NCBI GenBank assembly: GCA_964541755.1
Contig: CAZIRF010000048.1
Span: forward strand, 1-19,587
DNA from: an uncultured Spirochaetales bacterium
Lineage (GTDB): Bacteria; Spirochaetota; Spirochaetia; Treponematales; Breznakiellaceae
Direction of reading: 5' to 3'
DNA: 19,587 bases
Positions 211 through 19,587 of the stretch are shown here, one piece after another. The position numbers were made by a program, and so were the translations under genes. The notes below the pieces were generated by a model. The model did no database searches. It was not told the DNA's origin and saw only the letters and a program-made list of their open reading frames with translations. The stretch's first letter is position 1, and each line of letters begins with the position of its first letter.

Positions 211-224
211 CACAGGAATAAACA

Positions 225-258
225 GGGGCCTCCCATGCCGGGAGGCCCTTCTTCATTT
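225..258. terminator. Bidirectional rho-independent terminator. Stem GGGCCTCCC, loop ATGCC, stem GGGAGGCCC. It is followed by TTCTTCATTT on the plus strand and CTGTTTATT on the minus strand.
   Basis: Perfect 9-bp GC-rich inverted repeat with T-rich tracts on both sides. It lies 50 bp downstream of the stop of the minus-strand yjbQ-like gene. Confidence 0.7.
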
Positions 259-306: not shown

Positions 307-723
307 TCATTCCCCGATAATTTTTACCAATACCCGCTTTCGTCTGCCGCCGTCGAATTCCCCGTAAAAGATTTGCTCCCAGGGGCCGAAGTGGAGTTCG
401 CCTTCGGTGATGGCAACCACGACTTCCCGCCCCATTATTTGCCGCTTCATGTGGGCGTCTGCGTTGTCCTCGCCTACATTGTGGCGATAAGAAGAGATCG
501 GCTCGTGCGGGGCGAGTTTCTCGAGCCAGAGATCGAAGTCGTGATGCAATCCGCCCTCGTCGTCGTTGATGAAGACGCTGGCCGTTATGTGCATTGCGTT
601 CACGAGGCAGAGCCCCTCTTGCACCCCCGATTCCCGCACGAGATCGGCCACGGTGGGGGTGATGTTGATGAATTCGCGTTTCTTGCGGGTGTTGAACCAG
701 AGTTCCTTCGTCAAATGCTTCAT
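307..723 (-). CDS. yjbQ: YjbQ/UPF0047 family protein (secondary thiamine-phosphate synthase-like), 138 aa starting at MKHLTKELW.
   Basis: The translation shows family-typical blocks (NITPTVADL..., [36 protein letters not shown]..., [47 protein letters not shown]). I chose the internal ATG at 723 because a GGAG Shine-Dalgarno sits right upstream. The track ORF begins 15 codons earlier with no SD. Confidence 0.75.
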
Positions 724-772
724 GGAGGCTCTCCTTTTATCCAAAAAAGTATAGCACAAAGGGTACACGGGC

Positions 773-800
773 TTGACTATCAGAAATAATGTATTATAGT
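773..800 (+). promoter_or_regulatory. Candidate sigma70-type promoter for the GntR operon: TTGACT (773-778), 16-nt spacer, TATAGT (795-800).
   Basis: Near-consensus hexamers in an AT-rich 182-bp divergent intergenic region, about 100 bp upstream of the GntR start. Confidence 0.45.
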
Positions 801-817
801 ACTATTGTATTAGTTGT

Positions 818-833
818 TTAGTACATTAGTACA
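818..833 (+). promoter_or_regulatory. Perfect tandem direct repeat TTAGTACA x2, with nearby GTATTA x2 at 791-796 and 807-812, between the putative -10 and the GntR start. Candidate operator.
   Basis: Direct reading. GTAC is self-complementary. The position fits an autoregulatory operator of the downstream GntR/YtrA-like repressor. Confidence 0.3.
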
Positions 834-905
834 GGGTGATACTGACGGCATGCGAAGGGCATCTTCTGCTGCCATGAAAATTGTTGAAAGGAGGAGCACG
901 GCAAG

Positions 906-1325
906 ATGGGCGAAATGAGTTTCGAGCTGGACGCCAAGAGCGGCGTGCCGTACTACAAACAGATAATCCTCCAGGTGGAGATGGCTATCGCCGACGGGCG
1001 CTTCCCCGCCGGGACCCAGCTGCCCACGGTGCGCAGTCTCGCCGTGTCGCTGCAGATTAACCCCAATACGGTGGCAAGGGCGTACAACGAACTGGAGATT
1101 CGGGGGATCGTGACGACCCAACAGGGATCGGGGACCTTCATAAGCGACAAAAAACCCACCTTGAACGAGGTCGAGCGGGAGGGCGTTCTCGAGACCATCG
1201 CGCGCCCCTTCCTTACGAAGGCCCTGGCCTACGGCTTTACCGCCGACGAAATCGTACACTTCATACGGGAGAACGCACAGCCCGCTTCGCCCCGGACCCC
1301 TGAATCCAAGGAGAGTGACCGATGA
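906..1325 (+). CDS. GntR-family transcriptional regulator, short YtrA/YhcF-like subfamily, 139 aa.
   Basis: N-terminal winged-HTH signature (LPTVRSLAVSLQINPNTVARAYNELEIRGIVTTQQGSGTFIS). Good SD AGGAGG 8 nt upstream of the ATG. The stop overlaps the start of the next gene (ATGA). Confidence 0.85.
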   Translation: MGEMSFELDAKSGVPYYKQIILQVEMAIADGRFPAGTQLPTVRSLAVSLQINPNTVARAYNELEIRGIVTTQQGSGTFISDKKPTLNEVEREGVLETIARPFLTKALAYGFTADEIVHFIRENAQPASPRTPESKESDR

Positions 1326-2515
1326 ATATCCTGAACCTCTTTCGCGCAGAGAGCCTGCCGCGCATCCGCAACCCGCATCGCAGCGCACAGCGTGCCGACT
1401 TCGGCTTCAACCTCTTTTCATTCCTCGTCATGTTCACCCTGTCGACGGTCCTGGCTCTCGTTTTCCAGTTCGCCGGCGGCGGCCTCGCCCCGGCCCTCTT
1501 TATACGCGGGACGGGGGCCGTCCTCGTCGCAGCATCGATTTATGCCATTTTCGGGTCCTGGACGGCCCTGCTCGCCGCCCTCATTACGGCCCTGGCCGTC
1601 ATCTTTGCGGCCACCGGCCTGCGTGGCGACTGGGCCATCCTGGCCTGGGAGATGCAGGGGAGCGCCATGCTCTACGTGAGCCTCCTCTTCTTCATCATAC
1701 TGATGGGCCCCTCCATACAGGTGGTCAACCACTGGGACAAGGCGGTCGTCCTGCGTTTCGGGCGCTTCCACCGCGTAAAGGGCCCCGGCCTCTTTTTCCT
1801 CCTGCCCATCGTGGACCGCATGGCCGCCGTCGTCGACACGCGCATACGCGTCACGGATTTTTCGGCCGAGAAGATCCTTACCCGCGACACGGTACCCGTC
1901 CACGTCGACGCCCTCGCCTTCTGGATGATCTGGGACGCACAGAAGGCCATCCTTGAAGTCGAAGATTTCCTCGAGGCGGTGACCCTCTCTGCCCAGACGG
2001 CCCTGCGTGATTCGGTGGGCAAGTACACCCTTACGACCCTGCTTTCCGAACGGGAGACCCTCTACCGCGAGATACAGACCATACTCGACGCCAAGACGAA
2101 CCCCTGGGGTATCACAATACTCAGCGTTGAATTCGTCGACATACAGCTGCCCAAGGACCTCGAAGACGTCATGAGCCGCACGGCACAGGCCGAACGCGAG
2201 AAGAGCGCCCGCCTTTTGCAGGGCGAGGCGGAGGCAGAGGTCGCCAAAAAGTATCTCGAGGCGGCGGCTGTGTACAAGGATAACCCGCAGGCCCTCAACC
2301 TGCGCTCCATGGCCATGGTCTACGACGCGATGAAGACGCGGGGGAGCATGGTGGTCCTGCCCTCGAGCGCCCTTGATGGCATGAACATGGGCACGCAGAT
2401 AGCCGCCGCACAGGCGGTCAAGGAAAGCATGACGACAACGGCTCCCGCTACGGGTGCCGACACTACCGAACGCAATGCAGGCAGCGATGGGCGCGCTGCC
2501 GGGGAGGCAGAATGA
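1322..2515 (+). CDS. SPFH/band-7 (stomatin/HflKC-like) domain protein, 397 aa. It has an unusually long hydrophobic N-terminal region of about 110 aa, probably 3-4 TM helices, and an Ala/Thr-rich C-terminal tail.
   Basis: Typical SPFH core (VVLRFGRFHRVKGPGLFFLLPIVDRMAAVVDTRIRVTDF...VDALAFWMIWDAQKAILEVEDFLEAVTLSAQTALRDSVG...ILSVEFVDIQLPKDLEDVMSRTAQAEREKSARLLQGEAEAEVAKKY). Start/stop overlap with the GntR gene (ATGA at 1322-1325). Confidence 0.8.
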   Translation: MNILNLFRAESLPRIRNPHRSAQRADFGFNLFSFLVMFTLSTVLALVFQFAGGGLAPALFIRGTGAVLVAASIYAIFGSWTALLAALITALAVIFAATGLRGDWAILAWEMQGSAMLYVSLLFFIILMGPSIQVVNHWDKAVVLRFGRFHRVKGPGLFFLLPIVDRMAAVVDTRIRVTDFSAEKILTRDTVPVHVDALAFWMIWDAQKAILEVEDFLEAVTLSAQTALRDSVGKYTLTTLLSERETLYREIQTILDAKTNPWGITILSVEFVDIQLPKDLEDVMSRTAQAEREKSARLLQGEAEAEVAKKYLEAAAVYKDNPQALNLRSMAMVYDAMKTRGSMVVLPSSALDGMNMGTQIAAAQAVKESMTTTAPATGADTTERNAGSDGRAAGEAE

Positions 2516-3249
2516 ACACACAGACAACGACCATACTCCAGCTTGAGGGCGTCAAGCGCACCTACACGAAGGGCGAAGGCGAAGTGCACGCACTGGCGGG
2601 CGTGGATCTTGCCATCAAAAAGGGCGAGTTTCTCGCCGTCGTGGGGCCCTCGGGATCGGGGAAGACGACCCTGCTCAACATCGTCGGTTGCCTGGACAGC
2701 CCCACCAGCGGCGCAGTGAGCTACCTGGGACGGCCCCTTGCGGCCATGAGCGAGAACGAGCTTTCCGACTACCGCAAGGAGCACATCAGCTTTATCTTCC
2801 AGTCCTACAACCTCATCCCCGTCCTTACCGTGCGGGAAAACGTGGAGCTCCCCCTGGTTATCGAAAAGAAACTGGACAAACAGGAAATCCGACAGAAGGC
2901 AGAGGCCATACTCGCCCAGGTGGGGCTCGAAGGACTTGGGGAGCGCTACCCCCGGGAGCTCTCCGGCGGGCAGGAACAGCGCGTCGCCATTGCGCGGGCC
3001 CTTATCAAGGACCCGGTGATTATCCTGGCCGATGAACCCACCGCAAACCTCGACTCGCACACGGCGAAGGACATCATCGACATCATGCGCCGCATCAACC
3101 ACGAGACAGAGGCGACCTTCATCTTTTCCACCCATGACCCCATGGTCAAGGAGCGGGCCGACCGCGTCATCACCATAAAGGACGGGGCCATTTCCAGCGA
3201 CGAGGTCAAGCCATCTGCCGGAACGGGCAAAGCAGGGGGGACGACATGA
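2512..3249 (+). CDS. ABC transporter ATP-binding protein, LolD/MacB-type, 245 aa.
   Basis: Walker A GPSGSGKTT, Q-loop, ABC signature LSGGQEQRVAIARAL, Walker B ILADEPT, H-loop STHD. ATGA overlap with the upstream stop; SD GGGGAGG. Confidence 0.9.
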   Translation: MNTQTTTILQLEGVKRTYTKGEGEVHALAGVDLAIKKGEFLAVVGPSGSGKTTLLNIVGCLDSPTSGAVSYLGRPLAAMSENELSDYRKEHISFIFQSYNLIPVLTVRENVELPLVIEKKLDKQEIRQKAEAILAQVGLEGLGERYPRELSGGQEQRVAIARALIKDPVIILADEPTANLDSHTAKDIIDIMRRINHETEATFIFSTHDPMVKERADRVITIKDGAISSDEVKPSAGTGKAGGTT

Positions 3250-4499
3250 GCACCCTCTTCAAGATCGCCTGGCGCAATGTATGGCGCCACGGCAAACGAA
3301 CAGCCCTTACCATTATCACCATGGCCTTTGGCTTGGGCATCTTCATGTGGATGGACTCGATCATGAAGGGCATGGACCGCATGGGCCTTGAGGCCATCGT
3401 CGAGTACACCGACTCCTCCCTGCGCCTTACAAGCCGCGAGTACGCAGATGAGCTGCGCGGCGCTCCCTTGGACTATGGTATCGAAGCGGAACTACCAGCC
3501 CTTCGCCGCTTTCTGGCCTCGTACAAGGGGGTCGAAGCCATTTCGGTTCGCACCCGCTTTACCGGCGAGCTCTCGAACGGCGTTGACGGCATACCGGTTT
3601 TGGCCATCGCTGTTGAACCGGCAGACGATGCAGCCGTTTTCGCGCTGGTGGATCACCTCGAGGGCACCTGGCTCGATGGCCGGGGGAATCGCAGCATTGT
3701 CATGGGGATAAAATTGGCACAGACCCTGGACCTTGCAATCGGCGACAGCATCACCCTTTCTGCCCGCGACCGCAACGAGGCCATGAATGCCGACGAATTC
3801 ACCATTATCGGCCTCTTGAACACCCCCTCGCCCGAGGTCAACAAGAGCGGTGTCTACCTCGCCTACGCCGACGCGGAAGAATTCCTGGCCCTCGAAGGCC
3901 TGCGCACCGAGCTCGCCCTGTCCATGACGCGCCGGGTAAACCTCAAGGACGGCATGGCAGACAGCGACCTCCTGGCCGCTGCCATTGAAGAGAAGTGGCC
4001 CCAGCTCGAAGCCCGCAGCTTTGGCGAAATTGGCCGCAGCTTCCTGCAGCTCTCGCAGACCAAGGGGAAGTCCGCCGGCATGATGATCGCCATCATCCTC
4101 CTTATCGCCGGGGTGGGCATCGCGAACACCATCCTCATGAGCGTCTACAGTCGCATCCGCGAGATTGGCGTCCTGCGCGCCTTCGGTCTCAAGCCCAAGG
4201 ACATCTCGCGCCTCTTCCTCATCGAGGGGGGGATTATCGGCTTCGTCGGGGCCCTCGCCGGCCTCGCCTTCGGTATCGCCCTCGTCGCAGCAAACGTCTA
4301 CCTGGGCTTCCCCATGGAAGAGCTCATGGGCAACAACGACATGGGCATGCCCATCATGGGCACGCTCTACGGCGAGTGGAACCCATCCACCATGGCCACC
4401 GCCGTCATTTTCGGCGTCATCGTCGCCTTGATAGCCGCGCGTTCGCCAGCCAAAAAGGCGTCCCGCATGGAGGTAACCAATGCCCTCAGATTCAATTGA
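3246..4499 (+). CDS. ABC transporter permease, FtsX/MacB-LolCE type. N-terminal TM, large periplasmic domain, three C-terminal TM helices. 417 aa.
   Basis: N-terminus IAWRNVWRHGKRTALTIITMAFGLGIF. C-terminal FtsX-like block (IAIILLIAGVGIANTILMSVYSRIREIGVLRAFGLKPKDISRLFLIEGGIIGFVGALAGLAFG). ATGA overlap with the ATPase stop. Confidence 0.85.
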   Translation: MSTLFKIAWRNVWRHGKRTALTIITMAFGLGIFMWMDSIMKGMDRMGLEAIVEYTDSSLRLTSREYADELRGAPLDYGIEAELPALRRFLASYKGVEAISVRTRFTGELSNGVDGIPVLAIAVEPADDAAVFALVDHLEGTWLDGRGNRSIVMGIKLAQTLDLAIGDSITLSARDRNEAMNADEFTIIGLLNTPSPEVNKSGVYLAYADAEEFLALEGLRTELALSMTRRVNLKDGMADSDLLAAAIEEKWPQLEARSFGEIGRSFLQLSQTKGKSAGMMIAIILLIAGVGIANTILMSVYSRIREIGVLRAFGLKPKDISRLFLIEGGIIGFVGALAGLAFGIALVAANVYLGFPMEELMGNNDMGMPIMGTLYGEWNPSTMATAVIFGVIVALIAARSPAKKASRMEVTNALRFN

Positions 4500-5820
4500 T
4501 ACCCGTCCCGCTGGGAAGGGAATGCGTGCTGCAGGGCTTTCCCCTGCACGGCACAGAATATCGTCGCACTGGATTCTCGACCTCGCCCTGCGTAACACCC
4601 GCCGCAACAAGAGGCGCACGGTTCTCGCCGTAAGCTCCATAGCCCTTTCGGTCATGCTTATCACCTTCCTGGGCGGCTTTGCAGGCGGCGTCCTCGACAA
4701 CATGGTGCGGAACATCACCAAGAACACGAGCGGCCACGTGCGCATCATCACCAAGGGCTTTGCAGAGCGCGAATCCTTCATGCCCTTGGACGAGCTCGTC
4801 GCCGACCCCGGGGCCGTCAAAGGGGCCATTATGGCCGACGAGCGCCTCTCGAAGGAGGTCACCGAGGTCGCCGAACGCATTACCTTTGGCACCCTCCTCT
4901 CCAACGGCCCGGCCACCAAGGCCGCGATGGGCTTTGCCGGCGAGCCCGCCATCGAGAAAGATCTTATCGGCCTCGACCGCTCCCTCGTCGCAGGACGCTC
5001 CATCGCCGGCCCCGGCGAAACCATTCTGGGCGAAACCCTCGCCGACGACCTGGGACTGGCCATCGGGGAGCGCATCAAGGTTGTCACCCAGGGGGCCGAC
5101 TACGGCCTGCGCCTCAAGACCTTCGAAATCGTCGGCCTTTTCAAGACCGGCCAGTACGCATTGGACAGCGCCCTCTTCCAGATTCCCATCGAAGACGCGA
5201 AGAGCTTTTTGCGCACCGGCGGGGCCGTCCAGCAGATACTCGTCATGCTCAAGAACTACGAGCGCGCAAACGCCGCCCGCGACCTAATCGATGCAGCACT
5301 CGCCCGATCCGGGCTCAACCCCAACGACGAAATCCTCGTCCAAAGCTGGAAGGACGTGGGCGACTACCCCGGCATGATCGAGTACATGGAGCAGATCTAC
5401 TTCTTCATCTACCTCATCGTCGCCTTTTTGGGGGCCTTCATCATCACCAATATACTTACGATGGTGGTCCTCGAACGCCGCCGGGAGATTGGCATCCTCA
5501 AGTCGATGGGCCTGCGCCGCCGCGAAATACTCGGCCTCTTCCTCGCCGAGGGCGGCATCATGGGCGTTATCGGCAGCGCCATCGGTTCCCTCCTGGGTAC
5601 CGGGCTCTGCATCAGCTTTTCGATCTTCGGCATCGACTTTTCCGACGCGATGGGAACCCTCACCATGCCCGTCGACCCCGTCTTCTACAGCCGGGTGGAC
5701 CCGCTGCAGATCATCACCCTCTTTATCCTGGGCGTGGCCGTCTCGCTCATCGTTTCGATCGGGCCCAGCCGCCGCGCGGCCCGCATGAATGCCGTCGACG
5801 CCATCAAGAGCGTCGCGTAA
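4480..5820 (+). CDS. Second, non-identical FtsX/MacB-LolCE-type ABC permease, 446 aa. Probable heterodimer partner of the previous permease.
   Basis: Same architecture (ALRNTRRNKRRTVLAVSSIALSVMLITF ... LIVAFLGAFIITNILTMVVLERRREIGILKSMGLRRREILGLFLAEGGIMGVIG). GGAGG lies 6 nt upstream of the ATG at 4480, with a 20-nt overlap with the preceding gene. An alternative start is the ATG at 4522. Confidence 0.8.
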   Translation: MPSDSIDTRPAGKGMRAAGLSPARHRISSHWILDLALRNTRRNKRRTVLAVSSIALSVMLITFLGGFAGGVLDNMVRNITKNTSGHVRIITKGFAERESFMPLDELVADPGAVKGAIMADERLSKEVTEVAERITFGTLLSNGPATKAAMGFAGEPAIEKDLIGLDRSLVAGRSIAGPGETILGETLADDLGLAIGERIKVVTQGADYGLRLKTFEIVGLFKTGQYALDSALFQIPIEDAKSFLRTGGAVQQILVMLKNYERANAARDLIDAALARSGLNPNDEILVQSWKDVGDYPGMIEYMEQIYFFIYLIVAFLGAFIITNILTMVVLERRREIGILKSMGLRRREILGLFLAEGGIMGVIGSAIGSLLGTGLCISFSIFGIDFSDAMGTLTMPVDPVFYSRVDPLQIITLFILGVAVSLIVSIGPSRRAARMNAVDAIKSVA

Positions 5821-5833
5821 ACCGGAGGACCCC

Positions 5834-6631
5834 ATGAACAGAAGATTCATACTGATACTGACGCTCGCTCTCGCCACCTTCGTCACGGCCGTCCCCTTCC
5901 TGGCCGCCCAGGAATCTGGTGCGGCCGCTGGCGCCGGGGCGGCCACCCCCACCGCCCAAGAGATCCTCGCCCGTATGGACGCGCAGAAGGTCTTCGGCAC
6001 CGCCAGCTACCGCGCCGTCATGGAAATAGACCTGGGGCGGCGCGTTCTTCGCAAGGAGATGCGGGCCTTCGCCGATGGCGAGACCAAGGCCTTCATCGAA
6101 TTCACCAACCCCGAAGACCGCGGGGTACGCTACCTCAAGATCGACGATGAACTGTGGATGTACTTCCCCGACGAGGCGGAGACCATCAAGATCTCCGGCC
6201 ACCTGCTCAAGGAAGGGATGATGGGTAGCGACCTCTCCTACGAGGACGCCCTCGAGACCGGGGCCCTCGCCGAAAAACACACCATCACCCTCGCCGGGAG
6301 CGAGGAGGTCGATGGCCGTAAGTCTTGGGTGCTGGAACTTGTGGCCAAGGTCAAGAAGGTCCCCTACGAGAAGCAGAAGATATGGATTGATGCAGAGCGC
6401 TATGTAAGCCTTAAAGGCGAGATGTACGCCCAAAGCGGCAAGCTCCTCAAGACGAGCCGGGCCCTGGCCGTCGAGCGCATCGGCGACCGCTGGTATGTGA
6501 CGAAGCTCCAGATGGAAGACAGCCTCAAGAAGGGCAGCGGCACCACCTTTACCATGGAGGAGATCGCCTTCGATGTCGAGCTCCCCGACAACCAGTTCAC
6601 GATACGCGCCCTTACGCGCAGGGGCCGCTGA
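5834..6631 (+). CDS. Periplasmic LolA-like protein (outer-membrane lipoprotein-sorting/carrier fold) with signal peptide, 265 aa.
   Basis: Signal peptide MNRRFILILTLALATFVTAVPFLAAQ. The size, signal peptide and position immediately downstream of a LolD/LolCE-type ABC transporter suggest a LolA-like carrier; I could not verify any family motif from sequence and the call is based on context (the blocks KEMRAFADGETKAFIEFTNPEDRGVRYLKIDDELWMYFPDEAETIKI and RWYVTKLQMED are quoted only as landmarks). GGAGG lies 8 nt upstream of the ATG at 5834. The track ORF starts 15 codons earlier with no RBS. Confidence 0.6.
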   Translation: MNRRFILILTLALATFVTAVPFLAAQESGAAAGAGAATPTAQEILARMDAQKVFGTASYRAVMEIDLGRRVLRKEMRAFADGETKAFIEFTNPEDRGVRYLKIDDELWMYFPDEAETIKISGHLLKEGMMGSDLSYEDALETGALAEKHTITLAGSEEVDGRKSWVLELVAKVKKVPYEKQKIWIDAERYVSLKGEMYAQSGKLLKTSRALAVERIGDRWYVTKLQMEDSLKKGSGTTFTMEEIAFDVELPDNQFTIRALTRRGR

Positions 6632-7713
6632 TGAAGGGAAAGACTCAGTCCCGGCCGTATCCGCAAGCCCCGGTGCAGCCGGTCCATTCAACAATTTTCA
6701 TGGCAGCACTCCTGGGCCTCGGGGCCCTCCTCGCCCCCGGCTCGCTGGCAGCCCCCCTCGCCGCCCAAGAGGACGAGCCCCGCGTACAGCTGGGCGGCTG
6801 GGTGCGCAGCGAGCTGGGCGCGGACTTCGTCAACGGGGCCGATCCCCTCCAGAGCGGCGCGACCGCCCTGCGCCTTGACCTGCGCGGCGGCGACCGGGAT
6901 GTCGGCAGTGCCGAGGCCTCGGCGCTGCTCTCGCTCGACTACAACAAGGCCGGCGCCCCCAGCGTCGACTACGACATCTACACCCTCGCCTTTACTGTTT
7001 ACGCAGGCGACGTGGACCTCTCGATGGGGCGCCTCATCGCCAACTACGGGACCGGAACCGTCTTCTCGCCCACAGACATCTTTAGCGATGTGAACCCGGT
7101 GGACTTCTCGCGTTCGGGCACCGAGCTCGCCCGCCTCATCTGGTACACGGGGGATTTTTCTGCCCTCGAAGCCGTAAGTACCCTCTCCAAGCCCTTTAAC
7201 GACGTCGACGCCCTCCTTCGCTACCGCGACCAATTCGCAGGCTGGGACTGGGGCGCCCAGGCGATATGGTTTGGCGGCACCCCGGACGGCGACGAGGACG
7301 CCGCCCTCGCCTTCGGCCTCGACACCAAGGGCGACCTCTTCTTTGGCATAAGCGCAGAGGCCCTTGCCCGCCTGCCCCTGTCCTGGCAGGGCTTCGACGG
7401 GGACGTGGAGTGGACACTCATGGGGGGGCTGGACTGGTCAATACGGGGCAAGCTGATGATTGACGCGGAGTATCAGTGGTCGAACCGCGGGGAGGCTCAC
7501 CAGCTCTTTTTCTCGCTTTCGAGCCCCATAAGCCTGACGCTCTCAATCTCCGCCCACGCCATCTTCATGCCTGCAAGCGAACAGTGTCTGGCCATAGGGG
7601 CTGCAAACTGGGACTTCGCCCGTGCGGCCCGCGCCGACCTGCGCTACAGCTACACGACGGGTCCGCTCCAGGAAGCCCATATAATTATGGCGGGCGTCCA
7701 ATACTCATTCTGA
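6631..7713 (+). CDS. Secreted protein, probable outer-membrane beta-barrel, with signal peptide and a C-terminal ...GVQYSF. 360 aa. Function unknown.
   Basis: Signal peptide (MAALLGLGALLAPGSLAAPLAAQ). Alternating hydrophobic beta-strand pattern, rich in D/G/Y/W/S. Terminal aromatic residue F, typical of OMPs. The start ATG overlaps the stop of the LolA-like gene (TGATG); an alternative start is the ATG at 6700. Confidence 0.55.
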   Translation: MKGKTQSRPYPQAPVQPVHSTIFMAALLGLGALLAPGSLAAPLAAQEDEPRVQLGGWVRSELGADFVNGADPLQSGATALRLDLRGGDRDVGSAEASALLSLDYNKAGAPSVDYDIYTLAFTVYAGDVDLSMGRLIANYGTGTVFSPTDIFSDVNPVDFSRSGTELARLIWYTGDFSALEAVSTLSKPFNDVDALLRYRDQFAGWDWGAQAIWFGGTPDGDEDAALAFGLDTKGDLFFGISAEALARLPLSWQGFDGDVEWTLMGGLDWSIRGKLMIDAEYQWSNRGEAHQLFFSLSSPISLTLSISAHAIFMPASEQCLAIGAANWDFARAARADLRYSYTTGPLQEAHIIMAGVQYSF

Positions 7714-7728
7714 CACAAAAAAAAAGAA

Positions 7729-7775
7729 GGCTGTCGCAAAAGTCACTCAAGACTTTTGCGACAGCCCCTTTTGTC
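7729..7775. terminator. Strong bidirectional rho-independent terminator. Perfect 16-bp stem GGCTGTCGCAAAAGTC / GACTTTTGCGACAGCC with loop ACTCAA. It is flanked by an A9 run upstream and CCTTTTGTC downstream.
   Basis: Direct reading. It lies between the convergent OMP gene (+) and the yjfB-like gene (-), and can terminate both. Confidence 0.85.
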
Positions 7776-7789
7776 ATGATTTACCGGTA

Positions 7790-7999
7790 CTACGCCTGCA
7801 GGTCAATGTTTTGACCGAGGGCGGGGTCCGCGAACGACTCTTGCATCATCCCGACCACAGCGGCGCCCTGATTTTCGGCGCTGTCCATGGCCATCTTCTG
7901 CACCTGCATGCCGGCGCTCTGGATGAGATCCATCCGGGAAAGGCTTGTCGAAAGCTGTGCGATATCCATGCCTCCAATATACGGCATCGAAACCGACAA
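7790..7999 (-). CDS. yjfB: YjfB-like putative motility protein, small (59-69 aa).
   Basis: The sequence MDIAQLSTSLSRMDLIQSAGMQVQKMAMDSAENQGAAVVGMMQESFADPALGQNIDL matches the YjfB-family pattern (MDIAaLSm.mSq...q....v.K.AmD...). The TTG at 7999 has an AGGGAGG SD 6 nt upstream and would add MSVSMPYIGG. The family-typical start is the ATG at 7969, whose GGAGG is only 1 nt away. The start is therefore ambiguous. Confidence 0.55.
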   Translation of the reverse strand: MSVSMPYIGGMDIAQLSTSLSRMDLIQSAGMQVQKMAMDSAENQGAAVVGMMQESFADPALGQNIDLQA

Positions 8000-8000
8000 A

Positions 8001-8861
8001 TCAATCCTCCCTCTGGCGTATCAGGCGAATCTTGTCCCACACAAAGAGGCCCAGTGCAGCAGTCGCGACCGCACAGAGCAAAACGACGGCAATGCCCAAT
8101 TCTGCAAGGAGGGCCATCCCCAGGGCGCCGAAGGCCGCCGCAAGTATTTCCAACGCGGCCGGGGGGAGTTGCTCGACCAATGAGAGCGATATGGTACAGA
8201 AGGAGTTCTGCTCGCTGTAATCGCCCAGAGAGACCCCCAAGTCCTGTATCTGCCCCTCGATTTCAAGGATCTTGGTCTCGAGGGCCACCAGATCCGACAG
8301 GTCTGCCCCGGCTGTGCGCAGGGATTTGAGGCCGTCGCGGGTCTTTTCAAGGGAAAGACGGCTCGCCTCCAGGGCGCGATATTCGGCAGTACGGTCGCTC
8401 TTTACGATTTCAATCCCGCGAAGACGTGCGATACCCGAAAAGGCTTCAACCGTGGCGTCAAAGGCCTCGGGGACCACCCCCAGCTTGAGCGAGAGGACCC
8501 GCGAGCCGGGAAGGCCGCTCACATTCTCGCTCTGTATGACGGCGTCCGCCTTGCGCGCGAGGGCTCGGATCTCCTCGTTGTCCTTCTCGAAATTTGGGCT
8601 CGAAAGACGCACGGAGGCAACCCGCTCGTACTTCTGGTCGACGACCTGGCTCCCGCCCCCTTGGGCAATGACGATTTTCTCGCTGGCGTAATTGGCCTTG
8701 CTCCGCGACGAGGGCATGCTGTTCTGCACCATGTTGTCAAACCCGAAAACATCCTGCGGTGAGCGAAAGACCGAGACGAGCTCCGCGACAAAAAAACCGG
8801 CAAAAAGGACAAGATAGACGAGAATGGCCGCCTGGATGGCGCGTTTCACGGATTTTTTCAC
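8001..8861 (-). CDS. DUF4349-like bitopic membrane protein. N-terminal TM/signal anchor, central coiled-coil region, C-terminal TM. 286 aa.
   Basis: N-terminal hydrophobic helix (AIQAAILVYLVLFAGFFVA). Heptad-like central region (LSDLVALETKILEIEGQIQDLGVSL). C-terminal TM (ILAAAFGALGMALLAELGIAVVLLCAVATAALGLFVW). The DUF4349 call is from memory. GTG start at 8861 with AGGAG 5 nt upstream. The stop lies 1 nt before the yjfB TTG. Confidence 0.5.
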   Translation of the reverse strand: MKKSVKRAIQAAILVYLVLFAGFFVAELVSVFRSPQDVFGFDNMVQNSMPSSRSKANYASEKIVIAQGGGSQVVDQKYERVASVRLSSPNFEKDNEEIRALARKADAVIQSENVSGLPGSRVLSLKLGVVPEAFDATVEAFSGIARLRGIEIVKSDRTAEYRALEASRLSLEKTRDGLKSLRTAGADLSDLVALETKILEIEGQIQDLGVSLGDYSEQNSFCTISLSLVEQLPPAALEILAAAFGALGMALLAELGIAVVLLCAVATAALGLFVWDKIRLIRQRED

Positions 8862-8963
8862 ACAGACTCCTTGTCGTGGGGGATGCGGATTTTCGGCCCC
8901 GGTACGGGGCCCGCGTGGTAAGGGTACGGGGCGGGCCGCGCAAGCGGCCCGCCTGGCCTGCCA

Positions 8964-9935
8964 TCAGCCGTGATCGTCCCCCTCTTCTTCCTCACCGGAG
9001 AGTATGCGGGTATCCACGAGGGCGGCACGATCCTTGAGGGAAGAGGAGAAACTGATACCGGGGGCGGCCGTCTCGCCCCGCGCGGGGATGAGTATGTCCT
9101 CGCCCGTGCGGGGGTTCTTGACGACGCGGGGCTTGCGCGGGGGTCGCAGCTTGAGCGAGAGGCGGCCGATGCGTCCCAAAGAGACCCGTTCGCCCAAGAG
9201 GAGCCCCGATTCCACGGTGGACAGGAAGTCCGCGACCAGCTGGCGGGTACGCGTAATGGTAAGGCCGTTCTTGCCGGCAATGTAGCGGGCCATGGCGTTG
9301 AGCGTGAACTGTTCGGTCCCGCCGGCGCCGTCCTGACGGGTCATGGTAAGGTCCCGGTTGAGTTTCATGAAGCCATTGGTGATGAAGATACCCGCCTCGC
9401 GTATGCGCTTTTCCTGTTCGCCGGCATCGAGGCGGGCGGGACAGACGGCGATGCGGTAGAGCTTCGAGGTGGACTGCAGGGGGCCGGCGCGGAAGAGGAG
9501 GGGCTTGTCGCGTGCAGGGGCTTCGGCGAGGACGGCTCCTTCGCCGGATACTATTGAAGGAACATCGCTGCGCAGCTTGATGGACGCATACTCGAGGCTG
9601 CGCCCGAAGCCTTCGCCGGGGGGGCCGCCTTCGGGCGCCGCCGCGGGCCCCAAGGTAACGAGGGAGCCGGAGTAGGTCAGGGCTATGAGGGCCCGGCCGT
9701 CGTCCGGGGGAAGGGAAGCGCAATCTTCCAGTTCAAGAAGGTGCGACTGGCTCTCCCATAGTTCGAATTTTGCGAGCCAGTTGGCCGCGAGCTGCTCGCG
9801 CAGAACATCGGCACCCGCTCCGTCGCCACTGGACAGGGCAGCGGCCAAGGCAGATGCAGTAGCGGTATCGGCCAGTAGCCCGTCAATTTGGGCTTGAATT
9901 TCTTCGGGGAGTGTCCCGAACACGTTTTTGGTCAT
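8964..9935 (-). CDS. Two-domain protein of 323 aa. An N-terminal domain of unknown function (about 200 aa) is fused to a C-terminal HU/IHF-type DNA-binding domain and an acidic tail (EEEEGDDHG).
   Basis: C-terminal HU fold: LTITRTRQLVADFLSTVESGLLLGERVSLGRIGRLSLKLRPPRKPRVVKNPRTGEDILIPARGETAAPGISFSSSLKD. Compare the HU consensus ...[28 protein letters not shown]...F..GK.LKD. The N-terminal domain is paralogous to CDS 10421..10948. ATG at 9935 with GGGGG 6 nt upstream. Confidence 0.75.
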   Translation of the reverse strand: MTKNVFGTLPEEIQAQIDGLLADTATASALAAALSSGDGAGADVLREQLAANWLAKFELWESQSHLLELEDCASLPPDDGRALIALTYSGSLVTLGPAAAPEGGPPGEGFGRSLEYASIKLRSDVPSIVSGEGAVLAEAPARDKPLLFRAGPLQSTSKLYRIAVCPARLDAGEQEKRIREAGIFITNGFMKLNRDLTMTRQDGAGGTEQFTLNAMARYIAGKNGLTITRTRQLVADFLSTVESGLLLGERVSLGRIGRLSLKLRPPRKPRVVKNPRTGEDILIPARGETAAPGISFSSSLKDRAALVDTRILSGEEEEGDDHG

Positions 9936-9950
9936 TGAAGACCCCCTTTT

Positions 9951-10298
9951 TTACTGCCCGGGGACAGCACTTATCTTGAGCTCGGTCTTCCCCACGAGGA
10001 CGGTGTCCCCGGCAGCGAGAAGCCGTTTTTCCATCTTTTGCAGGGGTTTGCCGTTGACGAAGGTCCCGTTGGTGCTGTTGAGGTCTTTGATGGTATACTC
10101 GCCCTGGGAAAACTCCACGAGGGCGTGGCGCCTGGAGACGAGGCTGTCGCCGGTGATGACAATGTCGCAGCCCTCCTCCCGACCAATGAGAAAGCGCTTG
10201 GGGATGAAGATCGATCGGTCACGGAAGCGCATGGAGAGGCTCTTTTCCTTGGTTTCGCGCGCCTTGGGGCTGCGCTTGTATACTGTCGAATCGTCCAT
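9951..10298 (-). CDS. Small soluble FHA-domain protein (about 115 aa; 93 aa if it starts at the ATG at 10232).
   Basis: Canonical FHA motifs: FLIGREEGCDIVITGDSLVSRRHALVEFSQGEYTIKDLNSTNGTFVNGKPL (G-R, SxxH, NG). The track ORF start at 10442 would run through the divergent promoter and the neighbouring gene's RBS. I prefer the ATG at 10298, which has a weak SD. The ATG at 10232 is the alternative. Confidence 0.7.
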   Translation of the reverse strand: MDDSTVYKRSPKARETKEKSLSMRFRDRSIFIPKRFLIGREEGCDIVITGDSLVSRRHALVEFSQGEYTIKDLNSTNGTFVNGKPLQKMEKRLLAAGDTVLVGKTELKISAVPGQ

Positions 10299-10967: not shown

Positions 10968-12869
10968 ATGGCAGAGGAACCCGTTTTCATAGGCAAGTAC
11001 CGCTTGCTCAATCTCGTGGCGAAAGGGGGGATGGGGGCCGTCTACAAGGCGGTCCACCCCACCCTCAAGCGCGAAGTCATACTCAAGAAGCTCACCGTAC
11101 GCAATGCCCAGTTCATCGAACGCTTCAAACGCGAAGCGGCCATCATGATGGACTTCAAGCACGACAACATCGTTGCGGTCTGGGACCACTTCAAGGAGGG
11201 TGCCTCGTACTATATCGCCCTCGAGTACGTCGACGGCTTTTCACTGGGAGATCTCGTCAAGAGGGAGCGGGCCCTCCCCTCATCCCTGGCCATGTACCTC
11301 TTCCTGCACGTTTGCCGCGCCCTCAAGTACGCCCACGACCGCGGCGTTATCCACCGCGACATCAAGCCCGCCAACGTCCTGCTCTCCCGCTCGGGAGAGA
11401 TCAAGCTCGCAGACTTTGGCATAGCCACCCGCGACAACGAGACCGATACGGGGCTCACCACCCAGGGCATGACCCTGGGGACCCCTTCCTACATGCCCCC
11501 CGAACAGTTCGAAAACTCCAAGAGTGTCGACAAGTGCGCCGATATCTACGCCATGGGGGTCATGCTCTACGAAATGGTCACCGGCAAGAAGCCCTTCCCC
11601 GGCAACTTCGCCCCGGACACCATCGCCAAGATCCAGAAGGGCCAGTACCTGCGGGTCCAGCGTATCAATCCCAAGGTGGATCGTACGGTGGTCCGCCTCT
11701 GCCAAAAGATGATACGCCCCAAGAAGGAGCAGCGCTACCAGGACCTCGCGCCGGTCATACGCATCCTCGAACGCCGCCTCAAACAGGAGGATTTCGCAGA
11801 GGAAAAGGACCGCCTCCACGCCCTCATGAACCGGCGCCCCTTTACCCCAAAGAGAAAGCCCCGAAAAATGCTGCGCCGCATACTCTCCATCGCCCTTCCA
11901 TCGGCGGCAATCCTCGCCATCGGCCTCTCGCTCATTGTCTCGAGCGGCATCTTCCGCGGCTGGTTTCAGGCACATGACTGGGGGCGCCTCCGCGTCGAAG
12001 TGGCCCGCCCCGCGAAACAGGAGGAAGCCCTCCCCGTTTCCATCAAACTCTACACCGAAAAGAACGGCGAGCTCTCCTATCTGCAAAACCTCGAGATTCC
12101 GGGCCCCTGGCAGCGCACAAAGAGCTCGCTCACAGCCCTCCTGCCCGAAAACCGCCAAACAAATACAGATCAACTCTCTACCGACAGCGTATATTTGCCT
12201 GCCGGCTGGTACCGGCTCAAGATACAGACGGGGAACAAAGTCCTGTGGGATTCGGTGTACCTTGAACCGCTCGTTGTTCAGCGTATGCAGGGCCGCGGAG
12301 CGGGCCTGATTCTCGACTACGAGCCGGGCGAGGCCATCCCCAAGCCGGTTACCTTCAGCTTCGCCATACGCGATGAACGCCTCAAATCGGACATCACCGC
12401 GCAGTGTGACATTCTCTTCCAGACAAAGGCGGGCGCATGGGTCCCCTTCGAGCGCTTCCCCGAATCCGAACGCCTCTCCGGGCGTGTCTTTCGCATACGC
12501 GTAGCCGCGAAGGGCTACGACAGCCGCGTATTCTCGCTCTTGGTGGAACCGGGGCAAACGGAGCTGGGCATACAGGCCTCCCTCGCCCCGCTTACCGCCA
12601 CCCTCGTCCTCAAGACCGGCCTTTCGCGCGTATCCTTTACCCTCAACGACCAGAAGGCCGTGCTTTCCGGTACACAGGAGCGCCGCCTCGTCCCCCTGCG
12701 CCTCTCGCGCGGCGAAGAACTCAAACTGGAACTGCCACCGGGCAGCTGGGCCATTGCCAGCGGCTCGGGTAGCGACGAAGAGCGCATGGAATTGCAGCTG
12801 GCCCCCGGGGAAACCCGCAGGGTGGAGTTTTACCGGGACGATGGCAGCCGCACCATACAGTTGCGTTGA
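10968..12869 (+). CDS. Hanks-type Ser/Thr protein kinase, 633 aa. Cytoplasmic kinase domain, one TM helix, and a roughly 300-aa extracytoplasmic beta-rich domain (possibly PEGA/Ig-like repeats, not PASTA).
   Basis: Gly-loop AKGGMGAVYKA, catalytic Lys in VILKKL, catalytic loop HRDIKPANVLL, DFG (LADFGIA), activation-segment GTPSYMPPEQ. TM LSIALPSAAILAIGLSLIVSSGIF. C-terminal motifs LPAGWYRLKI, AAKGYDSRVFSL and LPPGSWAIA are reminiscent of PEGA domains. Confidence 0.9.
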   Translation: MAEEPVFIGKYRLLNLVAKGGMGAVYKAVHPTLKREVILKKLTVRNAQFIERFKREAAIMMDFKHDNIVAVWDHFKEGASYYIALEYVDGFSLGDLVKRERALPSSLAMYLFLHVCRALKYAHDRGVIHRDIKPANVLLSRSGEIKLADFGIATRDNETDTGLTTQGMTLGTPSYMPPEQFENSKSVDKCADIYAMGVMLYEMVTGKKPFPGNFAPDTIAKIQKGQYLRVQRINPKVDRTVVRLCQKMIRPKKEQRYQDLAPVIRILERRLKQEDFAEEKDRLHALMNRRPFTPKRKPRKMLRRILSIALPSAAILAIGLSLIVSSGIFRGWFQAHDWGRLRVEVARPAKQEEALPVSIKLYTEKNGELSYLQNLEIPGPWQRTKSSLTALLPENRQTNTDQLSTDSVYLPAGWYRLKIQTGNKVLWDSVYLEPLVVQRMQGRGAGLILDYEPGEAIPKPVTFSFAIRDERLKSDITAQCDILFQTKAGAWVPFERFPESERLSGRVFRIRVAAKGYDSRVFSLLVEPGQTELGIQASLAPLTATLVLKTGLSRVSFTLNDQKAVLSGTQERRLVPLRLSRGEELKLELPPGSWAIASGSGSDEERMELQLAPGETRRVEFYRDDGSRTIQLR

Positions 12870-12896
12870 CGATCGAAACAAGGAGATCATACTGAT

Positions 12897-13802: not shown

Positions 13803-13812
13803 GGAGCAGAAT

Positions 13813-17434: not shown

Positions 17435-17844
17435 GTCCTTTTTTCTTTCATCACAAGCCGATACTGTGGATCGGGGTTTGAAAGCCTTAAAAACCCATAG
17501 GAAAAACTGTATAAAAATCTTCAAACGGTGACGAAATTTGTACGGTTTTCCTGATATCTTGGAACAAAATATCACACAGATCCGGAAATAACAGCTACAT
17601 CCAAGAGATTGCCCCGCTACGGGCCCCGAACATGCTCGTGTTGATAAGGCATGAAGGGGGCGCGGCGGCTTCCCCATGCCAGAAGCCCCCCTGCCCCAGA
17701 GAGCGAGCGGAACTGCTTTACGCAGTTCCGCCACGGTCAAGTCGCACAGCATCTTGACCCGGCCCCCCTGCGGTCGGGCCGCGCCCCGGCCGCTCCCGCG
17801 CCCGTGTCGGGTCCCGCCCTACCCCCGCGAGAGAAGGAGGGGTA

Positions 17845-19502: not shown

Positions 19503-19587
19503 GTGTAAGTGTGGGCCGGTTGTGTTCCCGGTTGTAGACTCTCACATTAAACCATCCTGAACCCGCAAGAAACTCTCACGATCAGTT

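Follow-up and report, generated by a model that had tools for sequence, protein, structure and literature searches.

A spirochaete operon that probably encodes a repressor-controlled, ABC-driven exporter line for lipid-like cargo

Within a 19,587-nucleotide stretch of an uncultured Spirochaetales genome (hereafter the window), seven linked genes encode a regulator, a stomatin-like membrane protein, an ABC transporter with two permeases, a periplasmic LolA-fold carrier and an outer-membrane (OM) β-barrel. We consider it probable that this operon is an accessory, repressor-controlled exporter line for hydrophobic or amphiphilic, lipid-like cargo, and the module is best read as an ABC-driven counterpart of the RND (HAE3/MMPL) + LolA-like + DUF1302 systems of the AmeABCD type. 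The carrier, barrel and transporter genes form a core that is conserved well beyond spirochaetes, and comparison of this core with known envelope-spanning systems, as set out below, argues for such a function over lipoprotein sorting, efflux of toxins or uptake of nutrients.

Results

Organisation and control of the operon

The seven genes run along the + strand from 906 to 7713, linked by ATGA, TGATG or short overlaps (Table 1). The GntR/SPFH, SPFH/ATPase and ATPase/permease A junctions are each a common ATGA, the two permease genes overlap by 20 nt (an alternative ATG for permease B lies further in), a 13-nt gap containing GGAGGA precedes the carrier gene, and the carrier and barrel genes meet at TGATG; these overlaps suggest that the seven genes are translationally coupled. 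The publicly available annotation of the metagenome contig has exactly these ORFs. The terminator hairpin, flanked by an A-run and a T-run, is common to the operon and a convergent minus-strand yjfB-DUF4349-HU-like operon. Every junction described in the first-pass annotation could be reproduced from ORF coordinates and sequence, and its bracketing of the genes by a promoter/operator region and a strong bidirectional terminator was borne out by a sigma-70-like promoter, a palindrome and an 18-bp hairpin. Pfam profile searches backed its domain identities (GntR, Band_7, ABC_tran, FtsX/MacB_PCD, LolA_like), with no match over threshold for the 360-aa barrel protein, and its parts list, one component for every envelope compartment, was correct.

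Table 1 Features of the operon and its borders in the window.
Feature	Position	Strand	Basis or remark
Sigma-70-like promoter, TTGACT-16 nt-TATAGT	773..800	+	Consensus scan, 10/12 matches
Predicted GntR operator, TGTATTA-N6-TAGTACA, 20-bp palindrome	806..825	.	Inverted repeats; just 3' of promoter
GntR-family regulator, YtrA type, short (139 aa)	906..1325	+	PF00392, 64.9 bits, residues 17-79
Polytopic stomatin-like (slipin) SPFH protein	1322..2515	+	Band_7 PF01145, 125 bits
ABC ATPase, LolD/MacB/DevA type	2512..3249	+	PF00005, 118 bits
Type VII ABC permease A, FtsX + MacB_PCD	3246..4499	+	Pfam; slightly nearer LolE
Type VII ABC permease B, FtsX + MacB_PCD	4480..5820 (or start 4522)	+	Pfam; slightly nearer LolC
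Soluble periplasmic LolA-fold carrier (TP_0789-like / 'LolA3')	5834..6631	+	PF17131, 184.7 bits
18-stranded OM β-barrel, 360 aa, signal peptide	6631..7713	+	AlphaFold2, pLDDT 90.5
Bidirectional intrinsic terminator	7727..7768	both	18-bp stem, 9 GC pairs, T-runs on either strand
Convergent yjfB gene	7790-7987	-	Beyond terminator

Control by a YtrA-like GntR protein, as had been proposed, agrees with the short YtrA-type regulator and its conserved operator. Only ~60 residues follow the winged helix-turn-helix (wHTH), and the best NCBIfam matches, both under cut-off, are the Rv1152-family and PmtR regulators. Shuffling of the window gave no chance match to the operator palindrome (0/200 shuffles), and further half-sites lie at 789-804 and 827-833. 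The motif TGTAYTA-N6-TAGTACA is kept in 11 loci, including every homologous locus with a GntR gene: it occurs exactly, once per locus and 5' of the GntR gene in L007, L009, L010, L014, L015, L040, L064, L079 and L087, and directly 5' of the ATPase gene in L005. In 10 homologous loci, the operator is accompanied by a -35 element, CTTGACA, in the equivalent position. We predict that GntR is an autoregulated repressor of the operon. In B. subtilis ytrABCDEF and S. aureus PmtR-pmtABCD, the first gene of an ABC exporter operon likewise encodes a minimal GntR whose C-terminal tail is short, and a palindromic operator overlaps the promoter, whereas the transporter controlled here is an envelope-spanning diderm system and the regulator gene is always accompanied by one for a stomatin-like membrane protein.

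This SPFH protein does have the atypical multi-TM N-terminus noticed at first: hydropathy reveals four hydrophobic segments (29-47, 59-77, 82-100 and 117-135) ahead of the Band_7 domain, which are kept in homologues, and by the positive-inside rule the SPFH domain is predicted to be cytoplasmic. Among solved structures it comes nearest to stomatin 16-mers, PH stomatin and QmcA. Slipin-seeded look-ups fell within the same seven-gene operon in 4/4 cases, and the GntR+SPFH pair is a spirochaete-specific addition to a five-gene core.

Transporter, carrier and barrel

The ATPase has intact Walker A, signature, Walker B and H-loop motifs (GPSGSGKT, LSGGQEQR, ILADEPT and STHD in translation) and scores 231 bits against the LolD model TIGR02211, whose cut-off is 308; all three ABC components fall far below the NCBIfam LolCDE equivalog cut-offs. 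Permeases A and B are distinct paralogues (28% identity) and A precedes B in 71/71 loci, which fits a LolC/LolE-style heterodimer and upholds the suggested pairing of a LolD-like ATPase with two different FtsX permeases. Among solved structures, both match LolF, LolE and LolC over their full length (66, 50.5 and 34.8 bits for permease A; 74.9, 53.3 and 61.8 for permease B) and MacB only in the transmembrane part. Together with the absence of a membrane-fusion protein from the module, this speaks against a MacB-clade pump working with such a protein.

The carrier was likewise supported as a periplasmic LolA-fold protein by its PF17131 match (alongside a weak Pfam match to DUF1329), by a type I signal peptide and by LolA-fold relatives in the PDB (4Z48, 3BUU, 9TP6 and 3BK5); its N-terminus, MNRRFILILTLALATFVTAVPFLAAQ, lacks Cys and thus a lipobox cysteine. 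The Bacteroidota LolA3 proteins (F. johnsoniae Fjoh_0605; P. gingivalis PGN0947, PDB 9TP6) are also soluble, periplasmic and LolA-folded, and 9TP6 matches the window carrier with E 5.8e-15 (profile E 1.2e-22). The available excerpts of the two LolA3 studies (PMC11885536, PMC13103446) treat it only as an orphan, with a link to an ABC transporter or barrel left undiscussed there.

The predicted structure of the last product is an 18-stranded barrel, in line with its initial assignment to the OM. It ends in a β-signal (...YSF), carries a highly conserved loop L3 (GR-x4-G-x-G-x3-SP-x-D-x-F, residues 133-151) and resembles channels of the OprD, AlgE, LamB-type and Wzi structural class. Remote homology in profile comparisons, below the Pfam threshold, points to a divergent member of the DUF1302 superfamily, whose barrels are partnered by LolA-like proteins in systems that handle hydrophobic compounds with an RND pump as motor. 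The idea that it serves as a dedicated OM acceptor in the position of LolB had to be abandoned, as the 18-stranded channel fold and the remote DUF1302 homology rule out a LolB analogue.

Conservation of the five-gene core

Among the best 80 of at least 594 carrier relatives, the core of ATPase, two permeases, carrier and barrel was found in 46 of the 49 loci having enough flank, so that its co-conservation holds for this subfamily and not for all PF17131 proteins. These loci come from at least five phyla (Spirochaetota, Fibrobacterota, Myxococcota, Bacteroidota and others), between which gene content is kept and order is permuted, with two permuted orders. Distribution of the module is patchy, and the core is preceded by local regulators of three families, GntR, TetR and HTH_34 (winged helix), a common arrangement for inducible exporters. 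In one related locus (L001), the module has a FAS II gene set next to it. LolA-like + DUF1302 pairs also lie beside MMPL/RND pumps in Prevotella and Haliovirga, and a distant single-permease variant is found on an E. coli plasmid within an acyl-lipid biosynthetic cluster (ACP, KS-like and FeeM-like N-acyl amino acid synthase).

Comparison with known systems

Like LolCDE-LolA(-LolB), the module combines one ATPase and two different FtsX/MacB_PCD permeases, structurally nearest to LolF, LolE and LolC, with a LolA-fold periplasmic partner encoded alongside. In contrast to that essential housekeeping system, it is repressor-controlled and patchy, its scores lie well below equivalog cut-offs, its carrier belongs to PF17131 and not to LolA PF03548, and its OM partner is an integral 18-stranded barrel where LolB is a lipoprotein. 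We therefore reject the suggestion that it could be the housekeeping Lol system; canonical LolA is, moreover, separately conserved across spirochaetes (PMC11326224).

AmeABCD-type systems share the pair of LolA-superfamily (DUF1329/PF17131) and DUF1302-superfamily proteins, tight operon linkage and an implication in the handling of hydrophobic compounds: AmeABCD itself, which is RND-based, makes cells tolerant of monoterpenes and able to expel Nile Red (PMC6394551), and in T. pallidum TP0789 adjoins the RND pump TP0790 (PMC8407342). They differ in having a proton-driven RND pump instead of an ATP-driven type VII ABC heterodimer, a BNR/AmeC-like fourth protein that is absent here, and barrels of 435-605 aa, longer than the 360-aa one in this module, which falls below the DUF1302 Pfam threshold.

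[quoted passage not shown] That locus, however, encodes a single permease, which forms a homodimer, together with two TPR proteins and an Omp85-type barrel, and it lacks GntR and SPFH; with the window carrier as query, a plasmid collection gave no Borrelia match at E <= 1e-3. MacAB-TolC shares the type VII ABC fold, the MacB_PCD periplasmic domain and the envelope-spanning layout, whereas the module here has a permease heterodimer with no fused NBD, no HlyD-family adaptor and no TolC-type duct.

Discussion

We posit that two copies of the ATPase would drive the permease A/B heterodimer as a type VII 'mechanotransmission' ABC transporter which, like LolCDE, would draw a greasy molecule from the periplasmic leaflet of the inner membrane with energy from ATP hydrolysed in the cytoplasm. 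The PF17131 protein would then receive this cargo and shield it across the periplasm before handing it to the DUF1302-like barrel, which would pass it through or into the OM, loop L3 probably forming a constriction or docking site. The YtrA-type GntR would bind TGTAYTA-N6-TAGTACA overlapping the promoter and hold the operon silent in the absence of a signal. The polytopic SPFH protein would probably form oligomers at the inner membrane, surrounding the transporter or lying next to it, and serve either as a scaffold or as a sensor of membrane state, a part missing from the effector-less repressor. We infer export solely from what type VII ABC transporters are known to do, and likewise infer the hand-off order, the SPFH role and the nature of the cargo, which may be either a lipid or glycolipid made by the cell itself or a toxic hydrophobic compound of external origin.

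Three other functions were weighed. Efflux of exogenous membrane-active toxins (antibiotics, antimicrobial peptides, bile, terpene-like compounds) in the manner of MacB, with the LolA-like protein as a static pump-barrel adaptor and not a shuttle, would suit the MacB_PCD-bearing type VII transporter, the YtrA-/TetR-type local repressors typical of drug- or envelope-stress-induced exporters, the Rv1152-family and PmtR matches of GntR and the monoterpene tolerance given by AmeABCD (PMC6394551); the TGATG overlap of carrier and barrel also suggests that the two proteins are made in a 1:1 ratio and may form a stable complex. We regard it as unlikely, since Pfam and the barrel model reveal neither an HlyD-type adaptor nor a TolC-like duct, the permeases are more Lol-like than MacB-like, and a 25-kDa LolA fold alone is too short for the periplasm. 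It has much in common with the reading we favour; what chiefly sets the two apart is where the cargo comes from and whether the carrier stays in place or moves. Less probable still is a second, dedicated lipoprotein-sorting route, in which the ABC heterodimer would extract some of the triacylated lipoproteins, with the LolA-like protein as their carrier and the barrel as OM insertase or surface translocon. Permeases nearest to LolF, LolE and LolC and a carrier with the LolA fold would be expected of such a route; spirochaetes are without LolB and the route of Borrelia surface lipoproteins is unidentified (PMC11326224), and the authors describing BBJ23-29 name lipoproteins as one possible cargo (PMC13078400). 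Yet the ABC scores are far under the LolCDE equivalog cut-offs, the carrier is not canonical LolA, and the module is patchy and under TetR, GntR or wHTH local repressors. LolA3 is, moreover, dispensable in F. johnsoniae, a single lolA3 deletion having no phenotype, and cells devoid of any LolA/LolB homologue, LolA3 included, still expose a reporter surface lipoprotein (PMC11885536); nor does LolA3 bind LolB (PMC13103446). The barrel's DUF1302 kin partner pumps for hydrophobic small molecules (PMC6394551), and the distant plasmid variant sits in a lipid biosynthetic cluster. In view of the sub-cut-off scores, the non-LolA carrier, the patchiness and the LolA3 data, lipoprotein is thus a possible cargo but not the one we favour; of the Lol-like lipid/lipoprotein extraction pathway first suggested, the parts list and the Lol-type permeases stand, and the LolB stand-in does not.

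Least probable in our view is uptake of hydrophobic nutrients (long-chain fatty acids, sterols, hydrocarbons), which the barrel would admit, the LolA-like protein ferry inward and the ABC transporter insert into the inner membrane. Many spirochaetes rely on external fatty acids, and AupA and AupB, which we take to be DUF1302 and DUF1329 members, offer a parallel. Alkane uptake by Marinobacter depends on these outer-/inner-membrane partner proteins (PMC5989066), and in P. putida DUF1302 and DUF1329 genes affect fitness on fatty esters (bioRxiv 10.1101/2020.07.04.188060). However, the sister systems work with RND pumps that are likewise exporters, the regulators resemble efflux-type repressors, and L001 has its FAS II gene set beside the module. 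We also know of no importing type VII ABC transporter.

Taken together, this analysis suggests an accessory export line for lipid-like cargo, built around a five-gene core that is conserved across several phyla and so far unstudied as a whole, and whose genomic context here offers candidate partners for LolA3-type carriers.

A seven-gene operon with a Lol-like transporter, a LolA-fold carrier and a predicted outer-membrane barrel

The seven plus-strand genes of the operon are chained by ATGA at three junctions, by an overlap of 20 nt at 4480 and by TGATG at 6631, as proposed in the first-pass annotation, and the 13-nt gap it placed ahead of 5834 was likewise recovered and contains GGAGGA. Gene calls on the public source contig (ENA ERZ27276804 k141_92728, a 228-kb metagenome contig) are identical to those of the window, and Pfam backs the domains originally assigned to all genes but the last, the barrel, for which it returned no matches. 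The operon is followed by a hairpin with an 18-bp stem and T-runs on both strands, which also serves a convergent minus-strand operon starting with a 65-aa YjfB-like gene. No RNA elements were found in the window using Rfam.

Features of the window and of the compared loci (homologous loci from other genomes carry L handles)
Feature	Position	Strand	Match or detail
Spurious ORF (probably), 198 aa	193-789	+	antisense to real yjbQ gene
Strong hairpin	224-250		within ORF 193-789
yjbQ/UPF0047	307-723	-	divergent from operon
Intergenic region	724-905		common to yjbQ and operon
Promoter-like site	773-800		TTGACT-16-TATAGT
Promoter-like site	820 to 793	-	overlaps operator half-sites
Predicted operator	806-825		TGTATTA-GTTGTT-TAGTACA
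GntR regulator	906-1325	+	PF00392
SPFH protein	1322-2515	+	PF01145
ABC ATPase	2512-3249	+	Pfam
Permease A	3246-4499	+	FtsX, MacB_PCD
Permease B	4480-5820	+	FtsX, MacB_PCD; alternative ATG at 4522
LolA-like carrier, 265 aa	5834-6631	+	PF17131
Barrel protein, 360 aa	6631-7713	+	no Pfam match
Hairpin	7727-7768		18-bp stem
YjfB-like, 65 aa	7790-7987	-
Convergent string	7790-10298	-	YjfB-like, DUF4349, 323-aa protein, small FHA protein
Kinase/FHA/VWA series	10968-15426	+	633, 301 and 602 aa
PAP2-domain protein, 418 aa	16496-17752		adjoins SH3_3 protein
Low-GC region	17500-19587		418-aa protein with C-terminal SH3_3
L003, polytopic + HTH_34 module	4509-5689
L013, polytopic + HTH_34 module	5610-6672
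L034, polytopic + HTH_34 module	5679-6742
L005, operator ahead of ATPase	6626-6705		TGTATTA-N6-TAGTACA
L094, Prevotella nigrescens trio	4404-8921		MMPL/RND, PF17131, DUF1302
L095, Haliovirga abyssi trio	2934-7594		MMPL/RND, PF17131, DUF1302
L089/L090, E. coli plasmid NZ_CP060058.1	11878-23074		single-permease version

The 323-aa protein of the convergent string has a C-terminal HU/IHF-like domain with a long N-terminal extension. The plus-strand series of a Ser/Thr protein kinase, an FHA/YscD-like protein and a VWA-domain protein is a eukaryote-like signalling cluster. Towards the end of the window GC falls from about 0.62 to 0.42-0.50 in a region that may be horizontally acquired and whose SH3_3 protein is otherwise devoid of annotation.

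The Walker A, signature, Walker B and H-loop motifs of the ATPase are all intact, and its best models are LolD, MacB-NBD and DevA, every score lying under the cut-off. Taking the NCBIfam equivalog cut-offs as the threshold for LolCDE membership, the ATPase reaches 231 bits against LolD (TIGR02211, cut-off 308) and the permeases 107 and 126 bits against LolC/E (TIGR02212, cut-off 362). The permeases share 28% identity and each carries both MacB_PCD and FtsX domains, confirming the earlier description of a separate ATPase with two distinct permeases of this type, a LolCDE trait. Compared with all PDB chains, both match LolF, LolE and LolC nearly full-length, permease A being nearer LolE and permease B nearer LolC. 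The A-type gene stands ahead of the B-type in 71 of 71 related two-permease loci, which marks the duplication as old and makes the pair a probable obligate heterodimer.

The carrier has a type I signal peptide lacking a lipobox cysteine, and matches PF17131 (TP_0789-like in newer Pfam naming) at 184.7 bits, with further Pfam matches to DUF1329 (weak) and MucB_RseB. Its best matches come from Treponemataceae and other Spirochaetota, and its solved relatives are 4Z48, 3BUU, 3BK5 and 9TP6. The last is P. gingivalis LolA3, which has a LolA-like sheet of 13 strands, possesses neither the arginine typical of LolA nor the leucine typical of LolB, and does not bind the cognate LolB (PMC13103446); deletion of F. 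johnsoniae LolA3 was without phenotype (PMC11885536). Canonical LolA of the BB0346 type is conserved separately across spirochaetes (PMC11326224). Whereas canonical LolA of the LolCDE pathway belongs to PF03548, the window carrier has no PF03548 match. Borrelia BBJ28 was also sought with the carrier in a plasmid collection, with no matches.

The barrel is a divergent relative of DUF1302 proteins

In the alignment-based AlphaFold2 model of the barrel, which has 18 strands and supersedes a single-sequence model with a pLDDT of 31, strand parity would make the sole long loop (residues 136-163) extracellular loop L3, the usual constriction loop. The L3-region motif starts at the end of strand 5 and is the family's most conserved stretch (G133, R134, G140, G142, S146, P147, D149, F151, R161, G163 and D165); the C-terminal F360 is near-invariant. 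The family was recovered by exhaustive HMMER search, as a word-indexed homologue search retrieved only the barrel itself.

The window barrel falls below the PF06980 gathering score, and weak DUF1302 matches are seen in 13 of 78 family members. Using hhalign, the family profile aligned with a P. nigrescens DUF1302 protein, itself scoring 51 bits on PF06980, at 97.2% probability (E 3e-11), and with a H. abyssi DUF1302 protein at 88.7% probability, with GRQI-x-x-[FW]G motifs lining up in both comparisons. From these matches, alignments and motifs, the barrel belongs, on profile comparison, to the DUF1302 superfamily, as a shorter branch that has diverged. The barrel gene adjoins a PF17131 gene in all cases, Prevotella and Haliovirga included.

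Five core genes are conserved across phyla

No stretch of the barrel alignment was conserved enough for a locus scan, so the carrier alignment was used instead against one genome per species, confirming at least 594 relatives among 600 candidate stretches listed. The best 80 of these at least 594 relatives, together with four loci fetched earlier, were analysed by calling ORFs stop-to-stop and searching them with a profile of each window protein. All five core genes (ATPase, permeases A and B, carrier and barrel) were present in 46 of the 49 loci having at least 5.3 kb upstream and at least 1.4 kb downstream of the carrier gene, bearing out the expectation that the downstream genes are co-conserved with the transporter. 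Among the loci analysed two orders prevail: ATPase-A-B-carrier-barrel (28 loci, from Spirochaetota, Fibrobacterota and Myxococcota) and barrel-ATPase-A-B-carrier (22 loci, from Bacteroidota, Marinimicrobia, Aminicenantes and others); one further locus has carrier-barrel-ATPase-A. That the set is kept despite rearrangement is good evidence for a functional unit.

The genes upstream of the core vary: nine spirochaete loci have GntR and the polytopic SPFH protein, 19 loci have an unannotated polytopic membrane protein of ~230 aa followed by a 125-aa HTH_34 winged-helix regulator, and Bacteroidota and Myxococcota loci have a TetR regulator instead. The ~230-aa protein has an N-terminal amphipathic helix. 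In a census of genes outside the module alternative regulators were the only finding, most other clusters being antisense shadow ORFs; no biosynthetic or catabolic gene recurred from which the cargo could be identified.

A predicted GntR operator and a polytopic stomatin-like protein

The palindrome lies just 3' of the promoter-like site, with more half-sites on both flanks, and TGTAYTA-N6-TAGTACA was matched in none of 200 shuffled versions of the window. The exact motif occurs once in each of nine other loci, upstream of the GntR homologue and a few bases 3' of a CTTGACA -35 element. This conserved footprint strongly supports regulation of the transporter operon by the short GntR protein through the predicted site. 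L005, a homologous locus, carries neither a GntR nor an SPFH gene in cis; its copy of the motif follows a -35-like CTTGAC and directly precedes the start codon of the ATPase gene, and the regulator must be encoded elsewhere or have been lost. As yjbQ has the same intergenic region as the operon, GntR control may extend to it too.

The regulator comprises a wHTH (residues 17-79 of 139) followed by a very short C-terminal region, its top NCBIfam matches being Rv1152-family and PmtR regulators. The winged helix with its short tail, the position as first gene of an ABC-transporter operon and the palindromic operator are those of the YtrA subfamily, an assignment made by domain layout, gene context and operator.

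The SPFH protein has a Band_7 domain at residues 134-305 (125 bits) and is closest to stomatin (E 1e-37), which has been solved as 16-mer cages, followed by PH stomatin and QmcA, with HflK/C far more distant (HflK, E 1e-11); NCBI names its homologues 'slipin family protein'. Whereas stomatins and slipins have a single N-terminal membrane hairpin or anchor, four hydrophobic segments precede Band_7 here, three or four of which homologues retain, and the NfeD partner typical of stomatin/slipin proteins is absent from the operon by Pfam. Positive charges flank the N-terminus and the region past the last segment, which would place both ends of the protein, the SPFH domain among them, in the cytoplasm. 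All four slipin-seeded look-ups (the complete genome of Salinispira pacifica, Marispirochaeta aestuarii and two others) fell in a complete seven-gene operon, tying this slipin subfamily to the transporter. Kinship of the SPFH N-terminus with the polytopic protein preceding the core elsewhere was rejected, nothing being significant by BLASTP (best E 0.66).

The GntR protein is effector-less, and two independent gene arrangements upstream of the core pair a minimal winged-helix regulator with a polytopic membrane protein; we therefore suspect, as speculation, that the membrane partner supplies the regulator's signal.

The carrier and barrel also occur with RND pumps

In P. nigrescens (L094) and H. 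abyssi (L095), an MMPL/RND transporter, a PF17131 LolA-like protein and a bona fide DUF1302 barrel lie side by side, suggesting that the carrier/barrel pair there combines with a different inner-membrane motor. As a lead only, AupA and AupB are presumably DUF1302 and DUF1329 proteins. T. pallidum TP0789 adjoins the RND pump TP0790 (PMC8407342). In Proteobacteria, AmeABCD is made up of a DUF1302 outer-membrane protein (AmeA), a DUF1329 LolA-superfamily protein (AmeB), AmeC and an HAE3 RND pump (AmeD); it provides tolerance to monoterpenes and takes part in the efflux of Nile Red (PMC6394551). On fatty esters, Pseudomonas genes for DUF1302 and DUF1329 proteins show co-fitness with BNR and RND genes (bioRxiv 10.1101/2020.07.04.188060). 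Systems of the AmeABCD type have an HAE3/MMPL RND pump and a BNR-like fourth protein, whereas the window operon has an ABC transporter and no RND or BNR domain by Pfam. As RND pumps use the same receiving pair, the locus reads as the ABC-driven form of such systems.

A distant version of the module is carried by an E. coli plasmid of the mobilizable IncK2/Z type (NZ_CP060058.1), from the gut of a healthy human, and consists of a small TPR protein, an ABC ATPase, a single FtsX permease, a LolA-like protein and a protein of 399 aa with a match to the barrel profile at E 2e-6. An acyl-lipid biosynthetic cluster (SDR, ACP, KS-like, PfkB kinase, FeeM-like N-acyl amino acid synthase and crotonase) surrounds it, a context that points to export of a lipid made by the neighbouring genes.

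A model for export of hydrophobic cargo

We propose that the Lol-like type VII ABC heterodimer would extract a hydrophobic molecule from the inner membrane, that the soluble LolA-fold carrier would ferry it over the periplasm, and that the DUF1302-like 18-stranded channel would take it at the outer membrane. The first-pass annotation had raised the possibility of a housekeeping Lol system, an idea disfavoured by the sub-cut-off Lol scores, the local repressors, the patchy distribution and a carrier outside PF03548. These repressors belong to three families; together with the patchy distribution and the low Lol scores they argue for an inducible accessory system rather than a housekeeping Lol.

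Three other explanations were weighed against this export model. A static MacB-like efflux bridge would account for the shared MacB_PCD domains; however, the match of the permeases to MacB is confined to the transmembrane region, and MacB has its NBD fused to the permease and forms a homodimer, whereas here the ATPase is separate and the permeases are two and different. MacAB-TolC further employs an HlyD-family adaptor and a TolC-type outer-membrane factor, in place of which the operon has an 18-stranded porin-like barrel; neither component was found in the operon by Pfam, nor among the tabulated genes or recurrent gene clusters of the related loci covered. We consider such a bridge unlikely. 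A specialised lipoprotein route would fit the resemblance to LolCDE, in which a hook and pad of LolC recruit the carrier and the substrate is a triacylated lipoprotein, but both the Ame system and the surroundings of the module on the E. coli plasmid favour small lipids or hydrophobic compounds over lipoproteins as cargo, and we rate this route as less likely again. Uptake instead of export, by the same components, appears the least probable of the three.

A broader reading, in three parts that are jointly possible but doubtful, is put forward tentatively. The PF17131/DUF1329 carrier and DUF1302-superfamily barrel would form an unrecognised, widespread 'receiving end' with interchangeable inner-membrane motors, namely a type VII ABC transporter in the window operon and, in other systems, an RND pump of the HAE3/MMPL type; it would supply spirochaetes and the FCB group with their missing route for glycolipids or lipoproteins of the cell surface; and the stomatin cage with the effector-less repressor would be a new membrane-state sensing switch.

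Apart from LPS and classical lipoproteins, the routes by which hydrophobic molecules traverse the periplasm and outer membrane are poorly understood, especially in spirochaetes and Bacteroidota, where some proteobacterial machinery is absent or diverged. Three orphan pieces now come together in one multi-phylum module of five genes: the 'LolA3'/TP_0789-like proteins, several of them structurally solved, whose tested LolA3 members showed neither a phenotype nor LolB binding; an unannotated barrel family; and a Lol-like permease pair. Proteins that are being studied already, P. gingivalis LolA3, F. johnsoniae Fjoh_0605 and T. pallidum TP0789 for example, thereby gain specific candidate partners and a transport model open to test, and the barrels make up a new family whose loop is strikingly conserved. 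The operator and its regulator are a precise predicted pair, usable for induction experiments, and the strict linkage of a stomatin-like protein to a transporter operon offers a rare chance to give a bacterial SPFH protein a specific client.
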